From a virus: 64,000 nucleotides of DNA. Position numbers and translations under genes: made by a program. The notes under the pieces were generated by a model, which saw only the letters and a program-made list of their open reading frames with translations, had not been told where the DNA came from and did not search any database. The first letter of the stretch is position 1; each line of letters opens with the position of its first letter. Of the stretch, positions 3,902 to 56,898 are shown one piece after another. The stretch lies in the IMG/VR virus record IMGVR_UViG_3300044952_000182, positions 1,578-65,577 of that record, one strand, 5' to 3'.

Positions 3902-4115
3902 TGATAGCAACTCAATTAATGAGAAAGCTATAATTGGTTTCGCTTCTTTTATAATCATGATCATTTTTGCAATAGTGGACATCATCACTGGCACTATGCA
4001 TAAAGAGTTGGTTGTCAATGAGTTCATATATGATTCATTCAAAATATTAACTATAGCTTGTTTTGGTATTGCTTCTGTAGACAAATGGATAAACAAAATA
4101 AAAGGTAATGAATAA
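3873..4115 (+). CDS. holin candidate (two TM segments)
   Basis: 80 aa with two hydrophobic helices (AIIGFASFIIMIIFAIVDIITG; FKILTIACFGIASV) and a charged C-terminus, immediately upstream of the endolysin region. Confidence 0.45.
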   Translation: MKKFFSDLFDDSNSINEKAIIGFASFIIMIIFAIVDIITGTMHKELVVNEFIYDSFKILTIACFGIASVDKWINKIKGNE

Positions 4116-4704
4116 AATTCTAGTATTTGTTGTAATGGTTTTACTGTTTACAGTGACTCTTCAACATAAAGGATGCGTTAGCTCTCAGATAAAAGCTGAT
4201 ACTGTAACGTTACACGATACAACCTGGCAAGTTCATGACTCATTGATTGTCAAGAAGTTAAAGGTTAAAGAGATAATACATGACACACTACCTGCAGAAT
4301 ATATTGCAGACACAAACTACCCTAAGCTAAAAGCACAATATGATGCTTTAGTCTTTGCTCATTTAGCAAAGAAAGTCTATACTGACACTGTCAAGATAGA
4401 TACCTTAGGCTATGTAGCTGTAGCTGATACAGTACATAAAAACGAGCTACAGAACAGATCTTATAAATACAACTATAAGATCCCAACAATTACTGTGACA
4501 ACCATCATCACTAAGCAAGCTCCTCCTAAGGGAGCTCTATTTATTGGTGGTGGATTCACTAACACAAAACAACTAGAACTTCAAACCATACAGGGGGGAG
4601 TGCTTTACAAGACTAAGAAAGATAAGATATTTGGTTTACATATTGGAATAAACAACAATAGTCAAGTTATATATGGGGTGAGTAGCTATTGGAAAATTAA
4701 ATAA
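4108..4704 (+). CDS. secreted/lipoprotein-like protein
   Basis: N-terminal signal peptide MNKILVFVVMVLLFTVTLQHKGC. Confidence 0.4.
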   Translation: MNKILVFVVMVLLFTVTLQHKGCVSSQIKADTVTLHDTTWQVHDSLIVKKLKVKEIIHDTLPAEYIADTNYPKLKAQYDALVFAHLAKKVYTDTVKIDTLGYVAVADTVHKNELQNRSYKYNYKIPTITVTTIITKQAPPKGALFIGGGFTNTKQLELQTIQGGVLYKTKKDKIFGLHIGINNNSQVIYGVSSYWKIK

Positions 4705-4706
4705 CT

Positions 4707-5312
4707 ATGAACGTTGATAAATTAAAAGGGCACATTCCTGATGGGGTGATTGCTCAAATCCCTAGTGTAGTAGATAAGTTTGAGATCAATACACCTTTAC
4801 GTTTAGCCCATTTTCTAGCACAAACAGGACATGAATCTGGCGGATTCAAAGCTGTTACAGAAAACTTAAACTATGGAGCTGCAGGTCTTTCAAGTATCTT
4901 TAAGAAATACTTTACACCTGAAAGTGCTAAAGAGTATGAACGCAAACCTGAAAAAATAGCAAATATAGTATATGCAAACAGAATGGGGAATGGTAACCAG
5001 GCTTCTGGTGAAGGTTATAAATTTCGTGGAAGGGGTTTTATCCAACTAACAGGAAAGGATAACTACGCTGCTTTTGACAAGACAGTTGATGATGATATCA
5101 TAGCTAACCCAGATCTTGTAGCTACAAAGTACCCACTTTTATCTGCAGCTTGGTTCTTCCATAAGAATGGATTACACAAGATTGCTGACGAGGGGGCTAC
5201 AGATGCAGTGGTAACCAAGGTAACCAAGCGTGTTAATGGTGGAACAATTGGTCTACCAGATCGTATTAAACACTTTAATGAATACAATAATCTTTTAAAT
5301 GGTAGTATATAA
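4707..5312 (+). CDS. endolysin, glycoside hydrolase family 19 (chitinase-like lysozyme)
   Basis: LAHFLAQTGHESGGF ... YKFRGRGFIQLTGKDNY match the GH19 catalytic-core motifs (lAaFlAQ.gHESggf ... RGRGpiQLTg..NY). Confidence 0.85.
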   Translation: MNVDKLKGHIPDGVIAQIPSVVDKFEINTPLRLAHFLAQTGHESGGFKAVTENLNYGAAGLSSIFKKYFTPESAKEYERKPEKIANIVYANRMGNGNQASGEGYKFRGRGFIQLTGKDNYAAFDKTVDDDIIANPDLVATKYPLLSAAWFFHKNGLHKIADEGATDAVVTKVTKRVNGGTIGLPDRIKHFNEYNNLLNGSI

Positions 5313-44509: not shown

Positions 44510-44667
44510 TAGTGAGGACAGGATTTGAACCTGTATGTTATACCAAATGGTTAGGGTTATATTGCTTTCTTGCGTCCAAGAAATAATGTAGTAGTTCCCA
44601 TCTACGCCTCACCCTCTGTGTTTGATAGTATAACTCCATTAGCGTCTACCAATTCCGCCACCTCACT
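44510..44667 (-). tRNA. tRNA-like gene (type-II Leu-like D-arm) with a ~80-nt insertion between the anticodon-stem halves
   Basis: Minus strand: acceptor AGTGAGG…CCTCACT (perfect 7 bp) plus discriminator A; D-arm TGGCGGAATTGGTAGACGC identical to bacterial tRNA-Leu; T-arm ACAGG-TTCAAAT-CCTGT. Candidate anticodon stem AATGG…CCATT is separated by ~84 nt that contains its own hairpins. Confidence 0.4.
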
Positions 44668-48264: not shown

Positions 48265-48583
48265 AAAAACTACATATGTAAATACAGAGCTTGAATGGGC
48301 TGAGTCACAACTCGTTTCATGGAAAGCTTATGTAAATGCTAACCCACTGCATGAATTGAAAGATAGGATTGAGTGGAAACCTACAGCAAAAGGAGGACTA
48401 TTACCTATGGTGATAGCATCTATTGAAGCTCAAGGTAAATTTGTCCAAGAGACAATGAAAAACTATCTAGCATTGATAGAGGTGGTAGATAAGCTAAGAA
48501 ACATGGAAGAAGCTAAGGTGGAAGTGAGAGGTAAAGGTGAGTTGTCAGGAGCTGCTGCTGAGTTCTTAGCAAATAGAAAATAA
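48251..48583 (+). CDS. small terminase subunit candidate
   Basis: 110-aa ORF (trimmed to MATIKKTTYV) directly upstream of and overlapping (TAATG) the large terminase. Assigned by position only. Confidence 0.3.
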   Translation: MATIKKTTYVNTELEWAESQLVSWKAYVNANPLHELKDRIEWKPTAKGGLLPMVIASIEAQGKFVQETMKNYLALIEVVDKLRNMEEAKVEVRGKGELSGAAAEFLANRK

Positions 48584-50622
48584 TGGAACTACAAAGTATA
48601 GACTACAAAGACTGGTTTATAAATCAGAAGCGTATTCCTGATAAAGAATCTCAGGAGTGTAAGCCATTCTTTGACTTCCACAGAGAGCTATGCTTAAATG
48701 GAGCTATGATGGGAGGTACATATATTAACCCTTTCCTTTACTGGCACCTTAATATATGGCATACAGAAGTAGATATAATAGATAGTTATGGGAGGATTGC
48801 ACAGAAATATGCCAATCCCCTATTGAGAGATAATGAATGGCTTGTGACGAACGAAATTGACAGAGCTCAACAAGAAAAGAGGGGCTTAGTCATTCTAGGT
48901 ATTAGACGTTTTGCCAAGTCTGTTCTTGAAGCATCCTATATTGCATGGGGTGCGACCTTTGATGAAAACAGTCAGAATATCATAGCAGGCTTAAATGCCC
49001 CAGATATAAAACTGATTACTGATAAGATTGACAAAGGATTGAATTTCATTCCTGAGTATTGGAGGTGGCAGAGAATTGAGGATAACTGGAAGAACCAAGT
49101 GACTCTAGGTATAAAGACCAAGTCTGGTGAACGTATCCCATTCTCTTCCATTCTAATACGTAACCTTGATGAAGGTAATAATGAAGAGGCAATTGCAGGT
49201 ACAAAACCACGTAAATTAATTATAGATGAGATTGGTAAAGGGAATTTTCTTAGAGGCTTACAAGCTGCTATTCCAGGTTTCACTACACCCTATGGCTGGG
49301 GATGTAGTCCCATTCTTACTGGTACAGGTGGGGACATGAAGAAATTCATGGATGCCAAAAGTTTAATGTTTGACGTAGACAACTTTAATTTCCTTACATA
49401 TAATAATGCTAAAGATGACAAACGTATACATGGTTTGTTTATCTCCCATAAATATAGAATGGAGGCAAAGGAGGATTCTACACTAGGAGAATATTTAAAC
49501 GAGCCAACTAGTTCAGACTTACATAATGTTAAAATGCTTGTAAGTAATGAAGATAAGGCTACAGAAATTACTAACAAAAACCTAGAAAGACTTAAGAAAG
49601 CTGGTGATCGTATAGCCTATTTAAAAGAAAAGATGTACTATCCTCAAGAAGTAGATGATATCTTCTTGAACGAGGACACAAATATATTTGACATTGAGAG
49701 TGCTAAGAGACAGAAGACTAGACTGTTACAACAAGAAAGAACAGGAACTCCTGTTATATTGTTTAATGATGGAGAGAAGATAGCTCATGAGTTTACAGAT
49801 AAACTACCTATATCTAACTTCCCTCTAAAGAACTCAGACTTAAAAGAAGCACCTATTGTTATATATGAATTCCCTATAGATAATCCACCTTATGGATTGT
49901 ATGTAGCAGGAGTCGATCCATATAGACAAGGTAAGTCTGCATATTCAACTTCACTTGGATCTGTATACATATACAAGAGGATGCATGAAATTAGTGGTGA
50001 GAAGTATCAAGATATGTTTGTAGCTTCGTATTGTGCAAGACCTGATAAGAAAGAAACTTGGGAAGAACAAGCTAGACTTCTTATAAAGTATTATAACGCT
50101 AGAGCTCTTTGTGAGAATGATGATATATCCTTTATTGAATATATGAAAGCTAAAGGAGATGCTCACTTTTTAGAAAGACAACCTGACTGGTTGAAAGAGA
50201 TTGTACCAAATACCACTGTAAAAAGAGATTATGGTATTCATCGTTCAAGTCAGAAGATAATTGACTATCTTCACACTTGTTTAAAGAAGTATATGGAATC
50301 TCCAATCTTTGTAGAAAAGAATGATGCAGGAGAAGTGATTAGAGAAGTGTTAGGTGTGAGTAAGATATTTGATCCTGTATTGCTTGAAGAGATTATTCAA
50401 TATAATGATTCAGGTAACTTTGATAGAATCATAGCTGCAGAGTTAGCCATAGCACAAGCTTTAAAGATGGACCCAATAATGGGTAAGATAGGTGGAACAA
50501 GTGATGAACGAGTTGCTTCTATGTTTAAGAAGAAGAGAGGAAACATACTCTTCACTGACTCTAGAAATAACATGTTTGGACAATCAAAAAATAAATATAA
50601 ACGAAATAAATTGTTTTCATAA
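48583..50622 (+). CDS. terminase large subunit
   Basis: 679 aa immediately upstream of the portal. Deviant Walker A region LVILGIRRFAKSV, Walker B KLIIDEIG; acidic residues in the C-terminal half consistent with the RNase H-like nuclease domain. Confidence 0.7.
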   Translation: MELQSIDYKDWFINQKRIPDKESQECKPFFDFHRELCLNGAMMGGTYINPFLYWHLNIWHTEVDIIDSYGRIAQKYANPLLRDNEWLVTNEIDRAQQEKRGLVILGIRRFAKSVLEASYIAWGATFDENSQNIIAGLNAPDIKLITDKIDKGLNFIPEYWRWQRIEDNWKNQVTLGIKTKSGERIPFSSILIRNLDEGNNEEAIAGTKPRKLIIDEIGKGNFLRGLQAAIPGFTTPYGWGCSPILTGTGGDMKKFMDAKSLMFDVDNFNFLTYNNAKDDKRIHGLFISHKYRMEAKEDSTLGEYLNEPTSSDLHNVKMLVSNEDKATEITNKNLERLKKAGDRIAYLKEKMYYPQEVDDIFLNEDTNIFDIESAKRQKTRLLQQERTGTPVILFNDGEKIAHEFTDKLPISNFPLKNSDLKEAPIVIYEFPIDNPPYGLYVAGVDPYRQGKSAYSTSLGSVYIYKRMHEISGEKYQDMFVASYCARPDKKETWEEQARLLIKYYNARALCENDDISFIEYMKAKGDAHFLERQPDWLKEIVPNTTVKRDYGIHRSSQKIIDYLHTCLKKYMESPIFVEKNDAGEVIREVLGVSKIFDPVLLEEIIQYNDSGNFDRIIAAELAIAQALKMDPIMGKIGGTSDERVASMFKKKRGNILFTDSRNNMFGQSKNKYKRNKLFS

Positions 50623-53207
50623 TGGCAATTATAAGGTACACGAAAGACGCAACAATAAGATATGCTTATCTGAATATCTTTCCTGATCAGTTTAAAACTG
50701 AGAAGGAAAAGATGGATGAAAGCTGGATAAAGAATTCAATGGACTACTTTGCAAACAAAGCTTATGCTGAGTATGTCAAAGCTAGAGATACATTTGTAAA
50801 AAACTATGATCTTGTTAAAGGTATTTTAAGAAGAGAAGATTTCTTTGTAGAACCAGAAGTTAGAAGTTTTACAGATGTGCTTACATCAGATCTTGAACTT
50901 CCTGCTTATGTAAAACATTATTCTATAATGACCACTCCTATTAATGAGTTAGTAGGAGAGATATCAAAGCGACCTGATGCTTTCCTAGTAAAAGCATTTG
51001 ATGATGATAGTCAAGCTGAAGAGTTACAATTTAAGACTCAGATACTAAATGAATATGTAATTAATCAAGCAAAACAAAAGATAGAAGAACAAGCAATGGC
51101 TCAAGGTCAAGAAATTGATCCTGAAGAGTTAGATCAAATGACCATGGAACAAGTGAAAGATGAAATAGATAACTATACATCTGTAGCAGAGAAATGGGCA
51201 AATCATATTCTTTCAGCTCAAAAGATTGAATTTAATCTTAAAGAAAAAGGAGAAGATTCATTTAGAGACTTATTGATATCTGCTAGAGAGTTCTTTCATA
51301 TCTATGAGGACAACTCTAAGCTAGGATTTAATATAGAAGTAGCTAATCCAAAGAACACTTGGTTCTTAACTACTCCAGATAGAAAGTGGATATCTGATAC
51401 TACAGGACGTGCACAAGGAGCGTATGCTGCTGGCACTGTACAAGTGTTAGAATTATCTGAAATTATTGAAGCAGTTCCTGACTTAACTAAAGATGAGATT
51501 GATCACTTACGTAGTTCATTACAAGACTATGGATTGATTAATGTACGTGAATCTAACTTAGGTAATCCTAATGCTGTTCCAGGTAATGACTCTATTCAAT
51601 ACGATACATATGATCCATTAGTATTACAAACTAGAATGCTTATTGAATCAGAAATGAAAGAGAACAATGATGGTCTTAAGGACTTCTTAGGACTTACATC
51701 TAACGTATCTTCATTTGGTTATAAGTATGTTGTGGTAAGAGCTTATTGGATTTCTAAAAAGAAGATAGGTAAAGTAATATATACAGATGAGATGGGTAAT
51801 GAACAATCTATGTTAGTAGATGAGAATTATAAGTCTGGAACTATTCCTACACAAGAATCATTAGAGTGGGGATGGATTAACCAATGGTATCAAGGTATTA
51901 AGATTGGTCCAGATATCTACCATATCAAACCTTATAAGTTATTACCTTATTGTCCAATCATTGGTCAAACGTTTGAAGTTAAGAATACAGAGGCTAAGAG
52001 CTTAGTAGATATGATGAAACCTTTCCAAGTTATATACAATGTTTGTATGAACCAATTGTATAAGTTACTTGAGAAGGAAGTAGGTAAGGTGCAGTTAATG
52101 TCTATTAGACACATTCCTATTCCTAAGGATGGTGATGCTCAAGATGCATTAGATATCTGGGAAATGGAAGCACGTAATAGAGGAGTTGTGTTTGTTGATG
52201 ATAGTCCTGAGAACTTAAAGAGTCCATCTAGCTTCAACCAATATACAAGCTTAGATCTTACACGTACTACAGAGATCCAAGCAAGATATACTCTAGCACA
52301 ACAAATAAAGAATGAATGTTGGGAATTGATTGGTATGTCTAAGCAAAGACTTGGATCTGTGTCTGCTAGTGAATCAGCCACAGGTACCAATGCAGCTATT
52401 ACACAATCTTATTCTCAAACAGAACCTTTGTTTGTAGCTCATGAATATATCATGGGTCAGTTATACCAAGCTGTTATTGATGCAGCTTTATATGTAGAAG
52501 CTAAGAAGCCACAATCAACTATATCTTATATCACTAATGAAGGTGAATCTGCTTTTGTAACTGTAAATGGTACAGACTTAAGATTTAGAGATTTAAAAGT
52601 TTATTTAACTAACAGACCTGAAGATAGAAAAGCATTTGAGGAAATTAGAGGATTGTCTCAAGCAGTTCTTCAAAATGGTGGTAGCTTACATGATGTAATT
52701 GAATTGTATAGTACTAACTCCATGAGACAAATGAAGAAGGTATTTAAGACTCTTAAAGAAAGACAAGAGCAATTGCAAAATACTCAAATGCAACAAAAGC
52801 AACAAGAACTTGAACAACAACAACAAATAGGTCAAGCTCAATTAGCTCAGGCTCAACAACAAGCTGAAGAGAAAATAGCTAATGATAATTACAATGCTGA
52901 GTTAGATAGAATTAATAAGAAAGAGATTGCCCTTATTGCAGCTGAATCTAAAGCAGGACCTTTATCAGATATAGATGCATCTGGAGCTCCTGATGTTTTA
53001 GAAATTGAAAAATTATCAGCAGAAAAAGATAATGCATCTAGAGAATATCAAATGAAGACGCAAGATGCTATGACTAAAAATAGACTTGCTTCTGAGAAAT
53101 TACAATTAGAGAAAGAAAAATTACAAGTAGCTAGAGAAAACCAAGCAAATGATTTAGCTGTTGCTAAAGAAAATGCTAAAGGAAGATCTACTAAAAAACC
53201 TAAATAA
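50622..53207 (+). CDS. portal protein
   Basis: 861 aa between the terminase and the scaffold/capsid genes; Q-rich coiled C-terminal region; TAATG coupling to terL. Confidence 0.65.
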   Translation: MAIIRYTKDATIRYAYLNIFPDQFKTEKEKMDESWIKNSMDYFANKAYAEYVKARDTFVKNYDLVKGILRREDFFVEPEVRSFTDVLTSDLELPAYVKHYSIMTTPINELVGEISKRPDAFLVKAFDDDSQAEELQFKTQILNEYVINQAKQKIEEQAMAQGQEIDPEELDQMTMEQVKDEIDNYTSVAEKWANHILSAQKIEFNLKEKGEDSFRDLLISAREFFHIYEDNSKLGFNIEVANPKNTWFLTTPDRKWISDTTGRAQGAYAAGTVQVLELSEIIEAVPDLTKDEIDHLRSSLQDYGLINVRESNLGNPNAVPGNDSIQYDTYDPLVLQTRMLIESEMKENNDGLKDFLGLTSNVSSFGYKYVVVRAYWISKKKIGKVIYTDEMGNEQSMLVDENYKSGTIPTQESLEWGWINQWYQGIKIGPDIYHIKPYKLLPYCPIIGQTFEVKNTEAKSLVDMMKPFQVIYNVCMNQLYKLLEKEVGKVQLMSIRHIPIPKDGDAQDALDIWEMEARNRGVVFVDDSPENLKSPSSFNQYTSLDLTRTTEIQARYTLAQQIKNECWELIGMSKQRLGSVSASESATGTNAAITQSYSQTEPLFVAHEYIMGQLYQAVIDAALYVEAKKPQSTISYITNEGESAFVTVNGTDLRFRDLKVYLTNRPEDRKAFEEIRGLSQAVLQNGGSLHDVIELYSTNSMRQMKKVFKTLKERQEQLQNTQMQQKQQELEQQQQIGQAQLAQAQQQAEEKIANDNYNAELDRINKKEIALIAAESKAGPLSDIDASGAPDVLEIEKLSAEKDNASREYQMKTQDAMTKNRLASEKLQLEKEKLQVARENQANDLAVAKENAKGRSTKKPK

Positions 53208-53737
53208 TGTTTGATAAACTAATTGATGTATTGATTGAATGGTGGAATCATATTCTACCATTCATCATTATCAGAGACTATGAACAAGCTGTACTCCTTA
53301 GATTTGGAAAGTTTAATCGAGTGCTATTACCAGGTATACATTTTAAGATACCTTTCTTTGATGAGGCAATTGATCAGCATGTAGTAGTTACAACACTTAG
53401 TCTTGATGCTCAATCTTTATATACAAAGGATAAGCAAAACATTGTAGTCAAAGGACTTGTCAAATATAAGATAGCAGATGTTAAGATATTCCTATTAGAA
53501 GTCTATGATGCACAGGATGCCCTGTCAGATATGTCTCAAAGTATTATAAAAAATATTATTATGTCTATGACCTTAGAAGAATGTACAGATTCTGAACTTG
53601 ATAATATTTTGACAAAGAAAGTTAGGGTGGAAGCACGCAAGTGGGGAGTTGAAGTTCAACAAGTTACGCTTACGGATCTTGCTCCAATAAGAAGCTATAG
53701 GCTTATAAATGACAATTTTCTTAACAAATTAGATTAG
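53207..53737 (+). CDS. SPFH/band-7 (stomatin-prohibitin-like) domain protein, no TM anchor
   Basis: YEQAVLLRFGKFNRVLLPGIHFKIPFFDEAIDQHVV...TKDKQNIVVKGLVKYKIAD matches the SPFH core (e.gvv.rfGk....l.PGlhf.iPfid.v..vd.r...d.....tkD...v.vd.vv.yrv.d). Confidence 0.7.
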   Translation: MFDKLIDVLIEWWNHILPFIIIRDYEQAVLLRFGKFNRVLLPGIHFKIPFFDEAIDQHVVVTTLSLDAQSLYTKDKQNIVVKGLVKYKIADVKIFLLEVYDAQDALSDMSQSIIKNIIMSMTLEECTDSELDNILTKKVRVEARKWGVEVQQVTLTDLAPIRSYRLINDNFLNKLD

Positions 53738-53855
53738 AGTAAAAAATATTAATGCTATATTATATTGAATAATAGCCTATATAGAGCCTTGTCTCTTTGC
53801 TGTTAATTTAACTTGATATACTTTTACATTGAAAACCAAATAAATACAACTACAT

Positions 53856-55139
53856 ATGGCTGAAAATCTAGATATGCCTCAAATAGGCAACTTTAGTATT
53901 CAAGATACTATGGACATGGGTATGGGTAACCAAGAGTTATTAAATGATTTAATGTCTCCTGAAAGTGCTACATCTAATCCTGATGACATTCAGGATATCA
54001 AAGATGAACCTGCTCCTGCTCCAACAAAGAAAACTACTTCTAAACAACAAGCTATCCCAGATCCTGCAGAACCTGCAGACGATAAGAAAGACGAACCTGT
54101 TAAAGGGATTCAAGATTTCTTATATGGTGAAGATGATGATGAGGATGGTGAAGATAATGACAAACCAGCAACTGCACCAGCTAAGAAAGCTACGCAACCT
54201 GCTGATAATCAAGAAGATAGTAAAGATAATAATGATGATGATGAAGAAGGAGCTCCTGAGAGTCAATTCACTGCATTATCAAATGACCTTTTCAAACTAG
54301 GTGTTTTCTCTAAAGAAGACGAAGAAGAAGAAACTGCAATAGATACTCCTGAAGCATTCTTAGAACGCTTCCAAGCAGAAAAGAAAAAAGGAGCTATTGA
54401 AATTGTAGATAATTTCATTGGACAGTTTGGAGAAGATTATCAAAAAGCATTTGATGCCATATTTGTAAAAGGAGTTGATCCTAAAGATTACTTTGGTGCA
54501 TTTAGCCAAATACAATCTTTTGCTGAAATGGACTTAACTCAAGAGAACAATCAAGTGGCTGTTATTAAACAAGCTTTGACTGATCAAGGATTTGAGCCTG
54601 AAGATGTTATAACAGAAGTAGAAAGATTAAAAAACTATGGTGATTTAGAAAGTGTTGCTACTAAACATCATAAAGTCCTAATAAAGAAAGAAGGCCAAAA
54701 GCTTCAACAAATGGAGCAACAAAAAGAGGTCCAATTACAACAGCAACAAGCCATCAAGCAACAATATCATCAAAATGTAAACAACGTTTTACAAGAGAAG
54801 ATTAAAGCTAAAGAATTTGATGGCATACCAATTAACCCTAAATTAGCTGGTGAACTACAAGATTTCCTAGTAACAGATAAGTACAAAACAAATTCAGGTG
54901 AAACTCTCACTGATTTTGATCGTACAATTCTGGAGCTGAAACGTCCTGAGAATCATGCAACCAAAGTAAAGCTTGCGTTGATCATGAAGATAATGGAGAA
55001 AGATCCTACATTATCTACTATTCAAAAGACAGGTATCACCAAAAAGTCTAATGAATTATTTGGTGAAGTTGCCAGACAAGCCCAGAAAAGTTCAGTGAAA
55101 TCTAAACCATCAACTAAACCCAATTCTTGGTTTCAATAA
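53856..55139 (+). CDS. scaffolding protein candidate (acidic, Gln/Glu-rich coiled coil)
   Basis: 427 aa, very acidic N-terminal half, Q-rich helical C-terminal half; located directly before the capsid gene. Confidence 0.5.
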   Translation: MAENLDMPQIGNFSIQDTMDMGMGNQELLNDLMSPESATSNPDDIQDIKDEPAPAPTKKTTSKQQAIPDPAEPADDKKDEPVKGIQDFLYGEDDDEDGEDNDKPATAPAKKATQPADNQEDSKDNNDDDEEGAPESQFTALSNDLFKLGVFSKEDEEEETAIDTPEAFLERFQAEKKKGAIEIVDNFIGQFGEDYQKAFDAIFVKGVDPKDYFGAFSQIQSFAEMDLTQENNQVAVIKQALTDQGFEPEDVITEVERLKNYGDLESVATKHHKVLIKKEGQKLQQMEQQKEVQLQQQQAIKQQYHQNVNNVLQEKIKAKEFDGIPINPKLAGELQDFLVTDKYKTNSGETLTDFDRTILELKRPENHATKVKLALIMKIMEKDPTLSTIQKTGITKKSNELFGEVARQAQKSSVKSKPSTKPNSWFQ

Positions 55140-55174: not shown

Positions 55175-56728
55175 ATGGCAATTCAAACAATCCCAGGTTT
55201 AACTGGTTTTACCTATGCTAGAGTAGCTTCTATGGACAAGCGTGCAGTAGGTAAATTGACTGACTCGAACCATCTAGAGAGCTTTCACTCAACTGAGCCT
55301 GCTGATTATGATAAAAAAATCATCAGCTTGTACACTCAGAGTTCTCTTTATAGTAATGACTTCTTGGATATGATTAACAAGAGCACACCTTACTATATCG
55401 ACAATAATAGTGATGCTTGGAAATGGCAAGTACAAGTACCTTACAAGTTCCCAAAAATCATTGACGTTCCAACTTCAACACAGGAATTAAACAAGCCTGG
55501 TATTGATGGACAAGAGTTTCAAATCATCGTTGACACTAATGAGTTTTCTAAGAACGCAATTGTATCTGTTGGTACTCGTCAATATGGTCCACGTTTCTAT
55601 GTAGTAAAAGATCCAGTTCCTTGGAACGTTGGATACTTATACACTGTTACCTTAGTAAGTGACAATCCAACTGTTGATTTCGTAAGCCCTATCTTCTTGC
55701 AAGTGGGTGTTGAATTAGAGTTAGTTGATGCTGCTATTGGTGAGTTCGATCAAGACTTATTAGGTCTTCCTCGTTTGGGTGAGCAAATCACAATGTTTGA
55801 ATCTTTAGGTTCTGCATATGGTTATGAGCACAAAATTACTGAGTGGGCTGATGACAAGATGATGAGAGATGCTTCTGGCAAACCTTTAGACATCTTAGTA
55901 TATGCTCCTCAAAGACGTAACCAATTACCTTTAACTCGTAACGATGTTAAGTGGGAACCATTTATTGAGTTCTGGATGCGTAAGTCTATGTTAGAATTAA
56001 AAGTTAAGCGTATGATCTGGGCTCGTCCTGGAACTGTGAAGACTAATGGTTCTAAGCAAGAATTAAAGCGTACTTCTGCTGGTGTATATCACAGAATGCG
56101 TAACAATGGTAACTTAGTACAATACAATCGTGGTGAGTTTACAGCTAACTTGATTCGTTCTGTATTTGGTGACTTATTCTACAGACGTGTGGATGTTAAA
56201 GACAGACGTGTTAAAATGTACACTAATGAAGCTGGCTTTGACGTATTCCAACAAGCTTTAAAAACAGATGCTTTGAATTCTGGTCTTACTTTCATGGCTG
56301 ATTCTGGTAACAGATACATGCAAGGTGAAGGTCAACATATCACTTACAACTTTGCATTCGATGCAATGGTAACTCGTGAGACTGGTCGTGTTGAATTAAT
56401 TCACTTGAAAGAATTAGACTTACCTCAAACAAACTTAGAATTTGGACAAAACAAGAAGTCAACTCCAGTATTTATGGTGTTTGATGTATCTCCAATGTCT
56501 GATGGTTCTATGATCAACAATATTCGTGAAGTACGTATGAAGGGTGCACCTTCTATGACTTGGGGTTATATCGATGGTACTCGTCACCACTTAGGCTTTG
56601 CTAAGTCTCAAGGTATGAGTTCTGCAAATAAATTCCCTGGATATGAGATTTGGATGAAAGATCGTTGTGATGTGTTCATTGAAGATTTGTCTCGTACAGT
56701 CTTGATTGAGGAAATACCACAATTCTAA
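55175..56728 (+). CDS. major capsid protein candidate
   Basis: 517-aa ORF after the scaffold in the canonical terL-portal-scaffold-MCP order. A structured GC-rich element and the next gene's start context follow. Confidence 0.55.
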   Translation: MAIQTIPGLTGFTYARVASMDKRAVGKLTDSNHLESFHSTEPADYDKKIISLYTQSSLYSNDFLDMINKSTPYYIDNNSDAWKWQVQVPYKFPKIIDVPTSTQELNKPGIDGQEFQIIVDTNEFSKNAIVSVGTRQYGPRFYVVKDPVPWNVGYLYTVTLVSDNPTVDFVSPIFLQVGVELELVDAAIGEFDQDLLGLPRLGEQITMFESLGSAYGYEHKITEWADDKMMRDASGKPLDILVYAPQRRNQLPLTRNDVKWEPFIEFWMRKSMLELKVKRMIWARPGTVKTNGSKQELKRTSAGVYHRMRNNGNLVQYNRGEFTANLIRSVFGDLFYRRVDVKDRRVKMYTNEAGFDVFQQALKTDALNSGLTFMADSGNRYMQGEGQHITYNFAFDAMVTRETGRVELIHLKELDLPQTNLEFGQNKKSTPVFMVFDVSPMSDGSMINNIREVRMKGAPSMTWGYIDGTRHHLGFAKSQGMSSANKFPGYEIWMKDRCDVFIEDLSRTVLIEEIPQF

Positions 56729-56812
56729 AAAACCTAGAGCAAGGTTAGAACTACGCTCTACAAATACAAAGAAGAATTCCCCCCCACATCCCAGTGGGGG
56801 AGTCTTCTAACA

Positions 56813-56870
56813 CAGATGGACAGGTCAGGGCTTCATGCCTCACCGTGTTTCCTTCGATGGAAACCATCTG
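56813..56870 (+). ncRNA. structured GC-rich RNA element (three-helix, tRNA-minihelix-like)
   Basis: Closing stem CAGATGG…CCATCTG (7 bp) encloses hairpins GGTCAGG-gcttcatg-CCTCACC and GTTTCC-ttcgat-GGAAAC (T-loop-like TTCGAT). A CCCCC-acatcccagt-GGGGG hairpin sits upstream at 56781-56800. Confidence 0.3.
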
Positions 56871-56898
56871 CAAATAAACCAACAAAAATTAACTACAT

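Follow-up and report, generated by a model that had tools for sequence, protein, structure and literature searches.

The gene at positions 53207–53737 (+) of the 64 000-nucleotide stretch of viral DNA analysed here (the window; positions 1,578 to 65,577 of IMG/VR record IMGVR_UViG_3300044952_000182) encodes a stand-alone SPFH (band-7) domain of 176 aa, in which membrane anchor and coiled coil are both missing. We refer to this protein as a mini-SPFH. Judged on what occupies the corresponding slot in related phages, it appears to be an exchangeable accessory gene and no obligatory component of head assembly. The explanation we favour, and rate slightly short of an even chance, is that it supplies a swappable accessory SPFH domain that is expressed late, is directed at the host and engages the partners of host SPFH proteins. 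This reading builds on features that are observed directly, namely the identity of the domain, the lack of an anchor and of a coiled coil, selective constraint of the purifying kind, the breadth of the family, turnover of the cassette and the variety of contexts in which members are found.

The open reading frame (ORF) begins with ATG and contains the motifs RFGKF, LPGIHFKIPFFD and TKDKQNIVVKGLVKYKIAD, from which the sequence-only reading of this DNA had recognized an SPFH/band-7 protein. That assignment was borne out. The Pfam profile Band_7 (PF01145) covers residues 21–160 with an E-value of 2.1e-27 (96.8 bits, where the gathering score is 23.6), far beyond chance. An AlphaFold2 (AF2) model built on a diverse 65-sequence alignment was predicted with high confidence (predicted local distance difference test score (pLDDT) 94, predicted template-modelling score (pTM) 0.83); a shallow alignment of 20 sequences (81–98% identity) had given an unusable model (pLDDT 49.7) and was replaced. 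The model comprises a helix at residues 2–16, SPFH1 strands at 19–72, SPFH2 at 78–160 and a low-confidence tail at 161–176. Foldseek comparison with the PDB yielded human stomatin as the top match (E ~8e-14, query-normalised TM-score 0.76), followed by HflK, QmcA, prohibitin, erlin, flotillin and major vault protein, with E-values of 1e-13 to 1e-11 for stomatin, HflK and QmcA, extending to 1e-7 when PHB, erlin and flotillin are included. A profile of the family searched against the PDB likewise matched stomatin (1e-25) and HflK (~1e-19). Scores for the HflK and HflC equivalogs fell below the cut-offs (76.1 bits versus 159.4 for NCBIfam TIGR01933 and 54.3 versus 134.4 for TIGR01932), and identity with either protein was rejected.

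Along the gene, all on the (+) strand, an N-terminal amphipathic acidic helix (residues 2–17, FDKLIDVLIEWWNHIL; 53210–53257) precedes the SPFH1+SPFH2 core (residues 19–160; 53261–53686), as delimited by the AF2 secondary structure and the Pfam, PDB-profile and fold matches, and a short C-terminal tail (residues 161–176; 53687–53734) carries a conserved S-x-R-L motif whose R165 is near-invariant family-wide. The core and the RxG, PG...P, Q, TxD and WG motifs are common to stomatin, HflK and QmcA (query-normalised TM-scores 0.72–0.77), but the mini-SPFH differs from these proteins at both ends. At the N-terminus, it has only a 16-residue acidic amphipathic helix where they have a transmembrane segment or hairpin anchor. 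Its hydropathy maximum (Kyte-Doolittle, 19-residue window) is 1.34, below the level of ~1.6, and no transmembrane segment, signal peptide or lipobox was detected in the protein, so the earlier claim that it lacks a membrane anchor also held. The helix is strongly amphipathic (hydrophobic moment 0.80 versus 0.29 for shuffled sequences; family median 0.67), with an acidic polar face (net charge −2; family median −1), and the family-profile alignment places it on the second half of the stomatin intramembrane hairpin. A membrane-anchored N-terminus was considered and rejected, given the acidic character of the helix, the sub-threshold hydropathy and the assignment of residues 19–22 to an SPFH1 strand. 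The protein is predicted to be cytoplasmic and would probably act there.

At the C-terminus, the protein stops 16 residues past the last SPFH2 strand, at the point where full-length SPFH proteins start their cage-closing coiled coil. The stomatin and HflK alignments end at approximately residue 159 and the targets run on for a further 60–260 residues, the full-length solved homologues being 255–420 residues long. Since the CC1/CC2 coiled coil and the C-terminal cap are both missing, the mini-SPFH cannot form a closed cage in the known way.

Virus-encoded SPFH domains have been seen before, in PHROG 200 ('lipoprotein'), Vi01-like gp200, the 'band 7-like' proteins of Rhizobium and Agrobacterium phages, and mimivirus and pandoravirus proteins. 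These full-length proteins have 258–800 aa, some of them with membrane-protein or lipoprotein annotations, unlike the anchorless 176-aa protein described here, to which the PHROG 200 match is partial (4e-10, profile positions 103–258 of 379). In the literature, phage SPFH genes are treated as morons, and the reason why viruses carry them is called unclear. In BFVD, the only viral UniProt entry with the mini architecture is A0A6J7WFI0, a 173-aa 'HflK protein' from an uncultured Caudovirales phage; the other viral SPFH proteins there fall in the 258–800 aa range. A0A6J7WFI0 matches over its full length (TM-score 0.87 normalised to the query and 0.88 to the target, 28% identity) and probably belongs to the same family.

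IMG/VR holds at least 148 relatives, the best 80 of which, retrieved by their SPFH gene, were compared. All 80 have the order large terminase subunit (TerL), portal, SPFH, a 427-aa gene and major capsid protein (MCP). Each of the 79 full-length copies has precisely 176 codons, and its start codon either overlaps the portal stop (TAATG) or lies 2–5 nt after it. In the window, the portal stop TAA (53205–53207) and the mini-SPFH ATG (53207–53209) overlap by 1 nt (TAATG at 53205–53209, +), leaving no upstream spacer. Across 47 distinct alleles, the median ratio of non-synonymous to synonymous substitution rates (dN/dS, Nei-Gojobori) is 0.077; it rises from 0.056 in the core to 0.13 in the C-terminal tail and 0.29 in the first 20 residues. 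The ORF is therefore coding and under strong purifying selection.

The slot behind the portal gene was also surveyed in loci fetched by their MCP, a sample unbiased as to SPFH. All of the MCPs are at least 95% identical, and 68 of the loci have enough upstream DNA to be read. The type A gene found in the window (SPFH-A) occupies the slot in 53 of the 68 and is truncated in one more. It is missing or replaced in the remaining 14: three carry a divergent gene, SPFH-B (175 aa, 31% identical to SPFH-A, Band_7 8e-15), six carry two unrelated small ORFs (77–79 aa and acidic; 84 aa with an HExxH motif) and five are empty. All slot states share the same 3′ flank (TTAGAGTRAA...TTAATGCTATATTAT), and the cassettes, whatever their type, have their start at the stop of the portal gene. 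The flank in the window is the conserved spacer at 53738–53855 (+) (TTAGAGTAAAA; TTAATGCTATATTAT at 53749–53763), which is 117–123 nt long in the 80 loci and contains conserved blocks. The empty-slot loci represent four independent lineages whose nearest neighbours carry SPFH-A, and the two-ORF cassette adds two or more further groups. Across the 427-aa gene and MCP, one locus with this cassette shares 91.6% identity with an SPFH-A carrier.

SPFH-B is found in nine IMG/VR loci, always in the post-portal slot and between flanks 76–97% identical to the window. Copies lie at L125:3035–3562, at L155:2927–3454 and in L179–L187 (match 4001–4525). From its sequence, it may represent either xenologous replacement or extreme divergence. 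In the two-ORF cassettes (L138:3085–3550, L144:291–756, L162:3098–3563 and L166:3104–3569), the ORFs overlap and the 84-aa product has the metallopeptidase-like motif HEHFH (HExxH). Their products gave no Pfam or PHROG match above threshold, the 77-aa ORF of L144 yielding only a sub-threshold Slx4 hit (17.1 versus 24.8 bits, E 0.0055). Further afield, the slot is empty in Leptolyngbya phage Lbo-JY46, and the gut crAss phage cr10_1 has genes for a peptidase and for a regulator at this place.

The gene order on which the sequence-only reading relied is thus conserved in approximately 80% of close relatives, whereas in the other ~20% the slot holds SPFH-B, two small ORFs or nothing. Among more distant crAss-like phages the synteny breaks down: the gene is missing from Lbo-JY46 and cr10_1, and in another crAss-like phage (L088) it lies 5′ of TerL. 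What we observe is one fixed site, bounded by conserved flanks, at which the gene is present or absent and its alleles are replaced, together with horizontal spread, as in an accessory cassette or a moron-like gene; the universal presence and synteny in close relatives with the same capsid and portal that would mark a core head-morphogenesis gene are not seen. The TAATG overlap itself is real, but its interpretation as a coupling specific to the portal gene was rejected, because every cassette type abuts the portal stop and most of the distant family members overlap or abut whatever gene precedes them. The tight start-at-stop junction characterizes the slot, and compact phage operons generally.

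These data bear directly on the possibility that the mini-SPFH is a head-assembly or portal-associated factor, made in step with the portal, that nucleates or chaperones the portal or procapsid or controls a maturation protease. The model for such nucleation is the T4 gp40/gp20-style initiator. The fixed position and start-at-stop junction in all 80 SPFH-retrieved loci are what this possibility predicts, two other lineages also have the gene adjoining TerL or portal genes, and the recurrence of SPFH-B at the same site could mean that an SPFH domain is wanted exactly there. Nevertheless, 11 of the 68 near-identical head modules, from several independent lineages, have no SPFH gene in the slot, five of them being wholly empty, and Lbo-JY46 and gut crAss phages do without the gene. 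Because the slot is swapped or empty in near-identical head modules, the gene appears not to be obligatory for head assembly. Phages that are unrelated, and whose portals are unrelated too, carry family members in their replication modules or lysis cassettes, and no prohead protease was found in the window. We consider a head-assembly role unlikely, and the suggestion that the position of the gene implies a function in head morphogenesis was not supported, since slot turnover and variable contexts weaken that link.

The wider family was explored by searching its profile against 1.84 billion cluster representatives, which gave 6517 matches, 1187 of them with E-values below 1e-10. Among the 150 top-ranking clusters (50% identity), almost every protein is 160–199 aa long, and the proteins align end to end, including the N-terminal helix. 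The N-terminal pattern MFDxLxDxLxxxWxxxxP is kept family-wide and, along with G34, G43, Q69 and R165 of the C-terminal tail, is conserved down to ~30% identity. Few members come from GenBank phages, where only three distant matches of full or near-full length were found; tblastn searches there with two distant members, P0249 and P0175, returned one match and none, respectively. A megablast search of GenBank phages also found no nucleotide-level relative of the head module, so there is no cultured model phage. Single distant queries against IMG/VR were similarly unproductive, with no hits for P0124 or the L088 TerL and two loci only for P0186. On this sequence evidence, the mini-SPFHs appear to form a large, essentially undescribed family, mostly of uncultivated phages, that moves horizontally among unrelated phages.

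Distant members, 34–52% identical, are found in otherwise unrelated phages, and six of the loci (L084, L085, L089, L097, L098 and L099) have only the mini-SPFH gene in common with the window phage. Two lineages place the gene near packaging genes: in L088 it lies 5′ of a TerS-like gene, TerL and portal, and in MW202733, a 67%-GC podovirus, it directly follows TerL. The annotated 'prohibitin-like protein' coding sequence of the latter (137 aa; L001, MW202733.1, 8001–8543) appears N-terminally truncated, as the tblastn match to residues 1–170 begins 129 nt 5′ of the annotated start and 37 nt past the TerL stop. Elsewhere, the gene is found in a marine replication module with a nuclease, single-stranded DNA-binding protein and PolA (L085/L086), before a RecA/KaiC-like ATPase and DUF932 (L097), before GTP cyclohydrolase I (L087) and in a temperate-looking phage (L098). 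Lysis genes are neighbours in three further lineages. In L099 an Amidase_2 endolysin overlaps the SPFH start; in L089 the order is CHAP endolysin, two small ORFs and mini-SPFH, a 239-aa product there matching a 'crotonase/ClpP-like' PHROG whose protease identity is unconfirmed, Pfam and PDB searches having come back empty. The third is a 69%-GC clade of three loci (L091, 6001–7561; L092, 6001–8018; L095/96, L095:6001–7602), in which tail-like genes are followed by SPFH, always then by a trypsin-like (MarP/DegP-like) peptidase with a signal peptide, and then by an M15 endolysin or lysozyme; L092 adds a gene transfer agent (GTA)-type three-transmembrane holin after the endolysin.

The three lysis-associated lineages are independent of one another, and the window gene is probably co-expressed with late genes. 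Both points fit a regulator of lysis timing or of the envelope, in which a soluble SPFH domain would modulate holin and endolysin, or envelope-degrading proteases, late in infection. We regard this as improbable, however. The GH19 endolysin of the window lies ~48 kb away from the mini-SPFH gene, other members are in replication modules, and the enrichment for adjacency to lysis genes, approximately three of 12 contexts, is statistically weak.

Horizontal spread, together with a slot that is hypervariable between highly conserved flanks, has four states and has turned over repeatedly, is typical of accessory or anti-defence islands. The 31% identity of the two SPFH alleles, set between flanks of 76–97% identity, points the same way. 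The gene might accordingly belong to a counter-defence or host-range cassette, encoding a decoy or inhibitor of host immunity or abortive infection that is exchanged under an arms race. We give this only an outside chance. SPFH-A is under strong purifying, not diversifying, selection, the PADLOC-DB anti-phage defence profiles gave no match at E ≤ 0.01, and a search of a paper library for SPFH in anti-phage defence found no SPFH-based defence system or target. Finally, packaging of the protein as capsid-internal cargo or a virion-associated component is scarcely credible: Crassvirales do package cargo proteins and the gene lies inside the head gene block, but slot contents make it dispensable in close relatives, its product resembles none of the known virion proteins, and other mini-SPFHs are found outside structural modules.

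We therefore return to the preferred reading, a host-directed accessory SPFH domain. As the last gene of the TerL–portal unit, the mini-SPFH would be expressed late. The free SPFH domain would then bind what host SPFH domains bind. Candidate partners are a membrane-associated protease or a component of the envelope, of FtsH, NfeD or DegP type, and the ring that host SPFH proteins form; host membrane proteolysis or envelope homeostasis would thereby be retuned to the benefit of the phage. Late timing and partner mimicry are the parts of this scheme that we infer, and the mechanism that seems to us most plausible, mimicry or titration of host SPFH partners such as membrane proteases and envelope machinery, is held with less confidence than the reading as a whole. 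Elsewhere in the family, a link to proteases and the envelope is supported by the order SPFH, secreted trypsin-like peptidase, endolysin in the three high-GC loci, and by the endolysin genes directly before the mini-SPFH in L099 and close to it in L089. There is also a precedent for phage interference with an SPFH-controlled membrane protease in phage lambda CIII, which acts on HflKC–FtsH, although CIII is a small FtsH substrate-inhibitor with no SPFH domain and nothing ties the mini-SPFH to FtsH.

Several observations weigh against this reading. The acidic polar face of the N-terminal helix argues against binding to anionic membranes, and a site of action near the membrane is for that reason unsupported. 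Lacking the coiled coil, the protein may not be able to enter a host SPFH ring. Equivalog scores for HflK and HflC fall so far below their cut-offs that no specific host partner can be named. None of the 59 window ORFs of at least 100 aa encodes an NfeD, FtsH-like or protease partner, and the neighbours of the window gene likewise include no NfeD, unlike the SPFH–NfeD pairs QmcA–YbbJ and PH1511–PH1510; regulation of a protease by the mini-SPFH, raised in the sequence-only reading, is possible. Approximately 80% of the clade keeps the gene at one fixed portal-adjacent position and two other lineages have it near TerL or portal, which would equally fit a role in packaging or in the head.

The neighbouring genes place the window in a crAss-like phage, on the basis of the portal and capsid family matches. 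TerL (48583–50622, +; phrog_6681, 5e-85), conserved 5′ of the portal in all related loci, is the first large gene of the packaging and head unit. It is followed by the crAss-like portal protein (50622–53207, +; Pfam P22_portal 8.7e-15, phrog_6547 2.6e-104), the mini-SPFH gene, the 427-aa pre-MCP gene (53856–55139, +) and the crAss-type MCP (55175–56728, +; Pfam Crass_capsid 1.2e-27, phrog_11589 1.9e-33). The sequence-only reading had set the mini-SPFH between portal and scaffold genes. The portal was confirmed, but the scaffold is unproven: the acidic, coiled 427-aa protein is scaffold-like by position only and has no family match apart from phrog_16294, of unknown function. It is weakly homologous to the products of genes directly 5′ of MCP in Lbo-JY46 and cr10_1 (BLASTP 8e-7 and 3e-6). 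The window portal is 24–29% identical to those of Crassvirales and Lbo-JY46, the latter being the best match, and the phage is only distantly related to gut Crassvirales (portal ~25% identical).

The host of this freshwater crAss-like clade is probably a member of the Bacteroidota. The sole GTDB match is this phage, a 59-kb contig (L090, JBBAJX010000014.1) binned into the metagenome-assembled genome Sediminibacterium sp. EUL_022, with identities to the window phage of 85% for TerL, 80% for portal, 96% for MCP and 84% for SPFH; the binning is possibly a clue to the host and possibly an artefact. Sigma-70 promoter and terminator scans around the mini-SPFH gene stayed at background level. A conserved promoter-like element lies 3′ of the gene, facing the pre-MCP gene (TTTG at 53796–53799, N19, TACTTTTA at 53819–53826); TTTG-N19-TAnnTTTn resembles the Bacteroidota sigma-A promoter consensus. 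The sequence of this element suggests that the pre-MCP gene and MCP may have their own separate promoter and that the host may belong to the Bacteroidota. The spacer between MCP and the next gene (56729–56898) is unusually GC-rich and structured (minimum free energy −50.9 kcal/mol, z = −4.7; hairpin CCCCCCCACATCCCAGTGGGGG) and ends in a leader (AAACCAA...AACTACATATGG) that it shares with the spacer preceding the 427-aa gene. At 44510–44667 (−), an Rfam tRNA match of 36.7 bits spans 158 nt, against a 71-position model, while ARAGORN found no tRNA in the window; a tRNA with an intron or insert is one possible explanation, a tRNA-like element another. The candidate GH19 (chitinase class I type) endolysin, with a GRGFIQLT motif, is encoded at 4707–5312 (+), far from the structural block.

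For the biology of these phages, the turnover of the post-portal cassette warns against inferring function from position within a morphogenesis operon. Near-isogenic head modules that differ only in this cassette amount to a natural experiment, and make function testable. The mini-SPFHs are a distinct, abundant and apparently undescribed subfamily keeping only the SPFH core; its best matches alone make up at least 150 clusters (50% identity). Structures of SPFH membrane protease cages have been solved only recently; if host SPFH domains are being mimicked, this would be a new viral way of manipulating such cages. A bolder generalization, to which we assign a low probability, is that mini-SPFHs are widespread phage-specific soluble SPFH 'decoys' that dock on the SPFH cages of the host or on clients of these cages (FtsH-, NfeD- or DegP-type proteases). 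Were that true, they would open, cap or titrate these cages or clients, and the occurrence in one slot of two alleles with 31% identity would stem from adaptation to SPFH systems that differ between hosts. The mini-SPFH would then be a portable switch over host membrane proteolysis and envelope integrity, plugged into late, lysis or replication operons.

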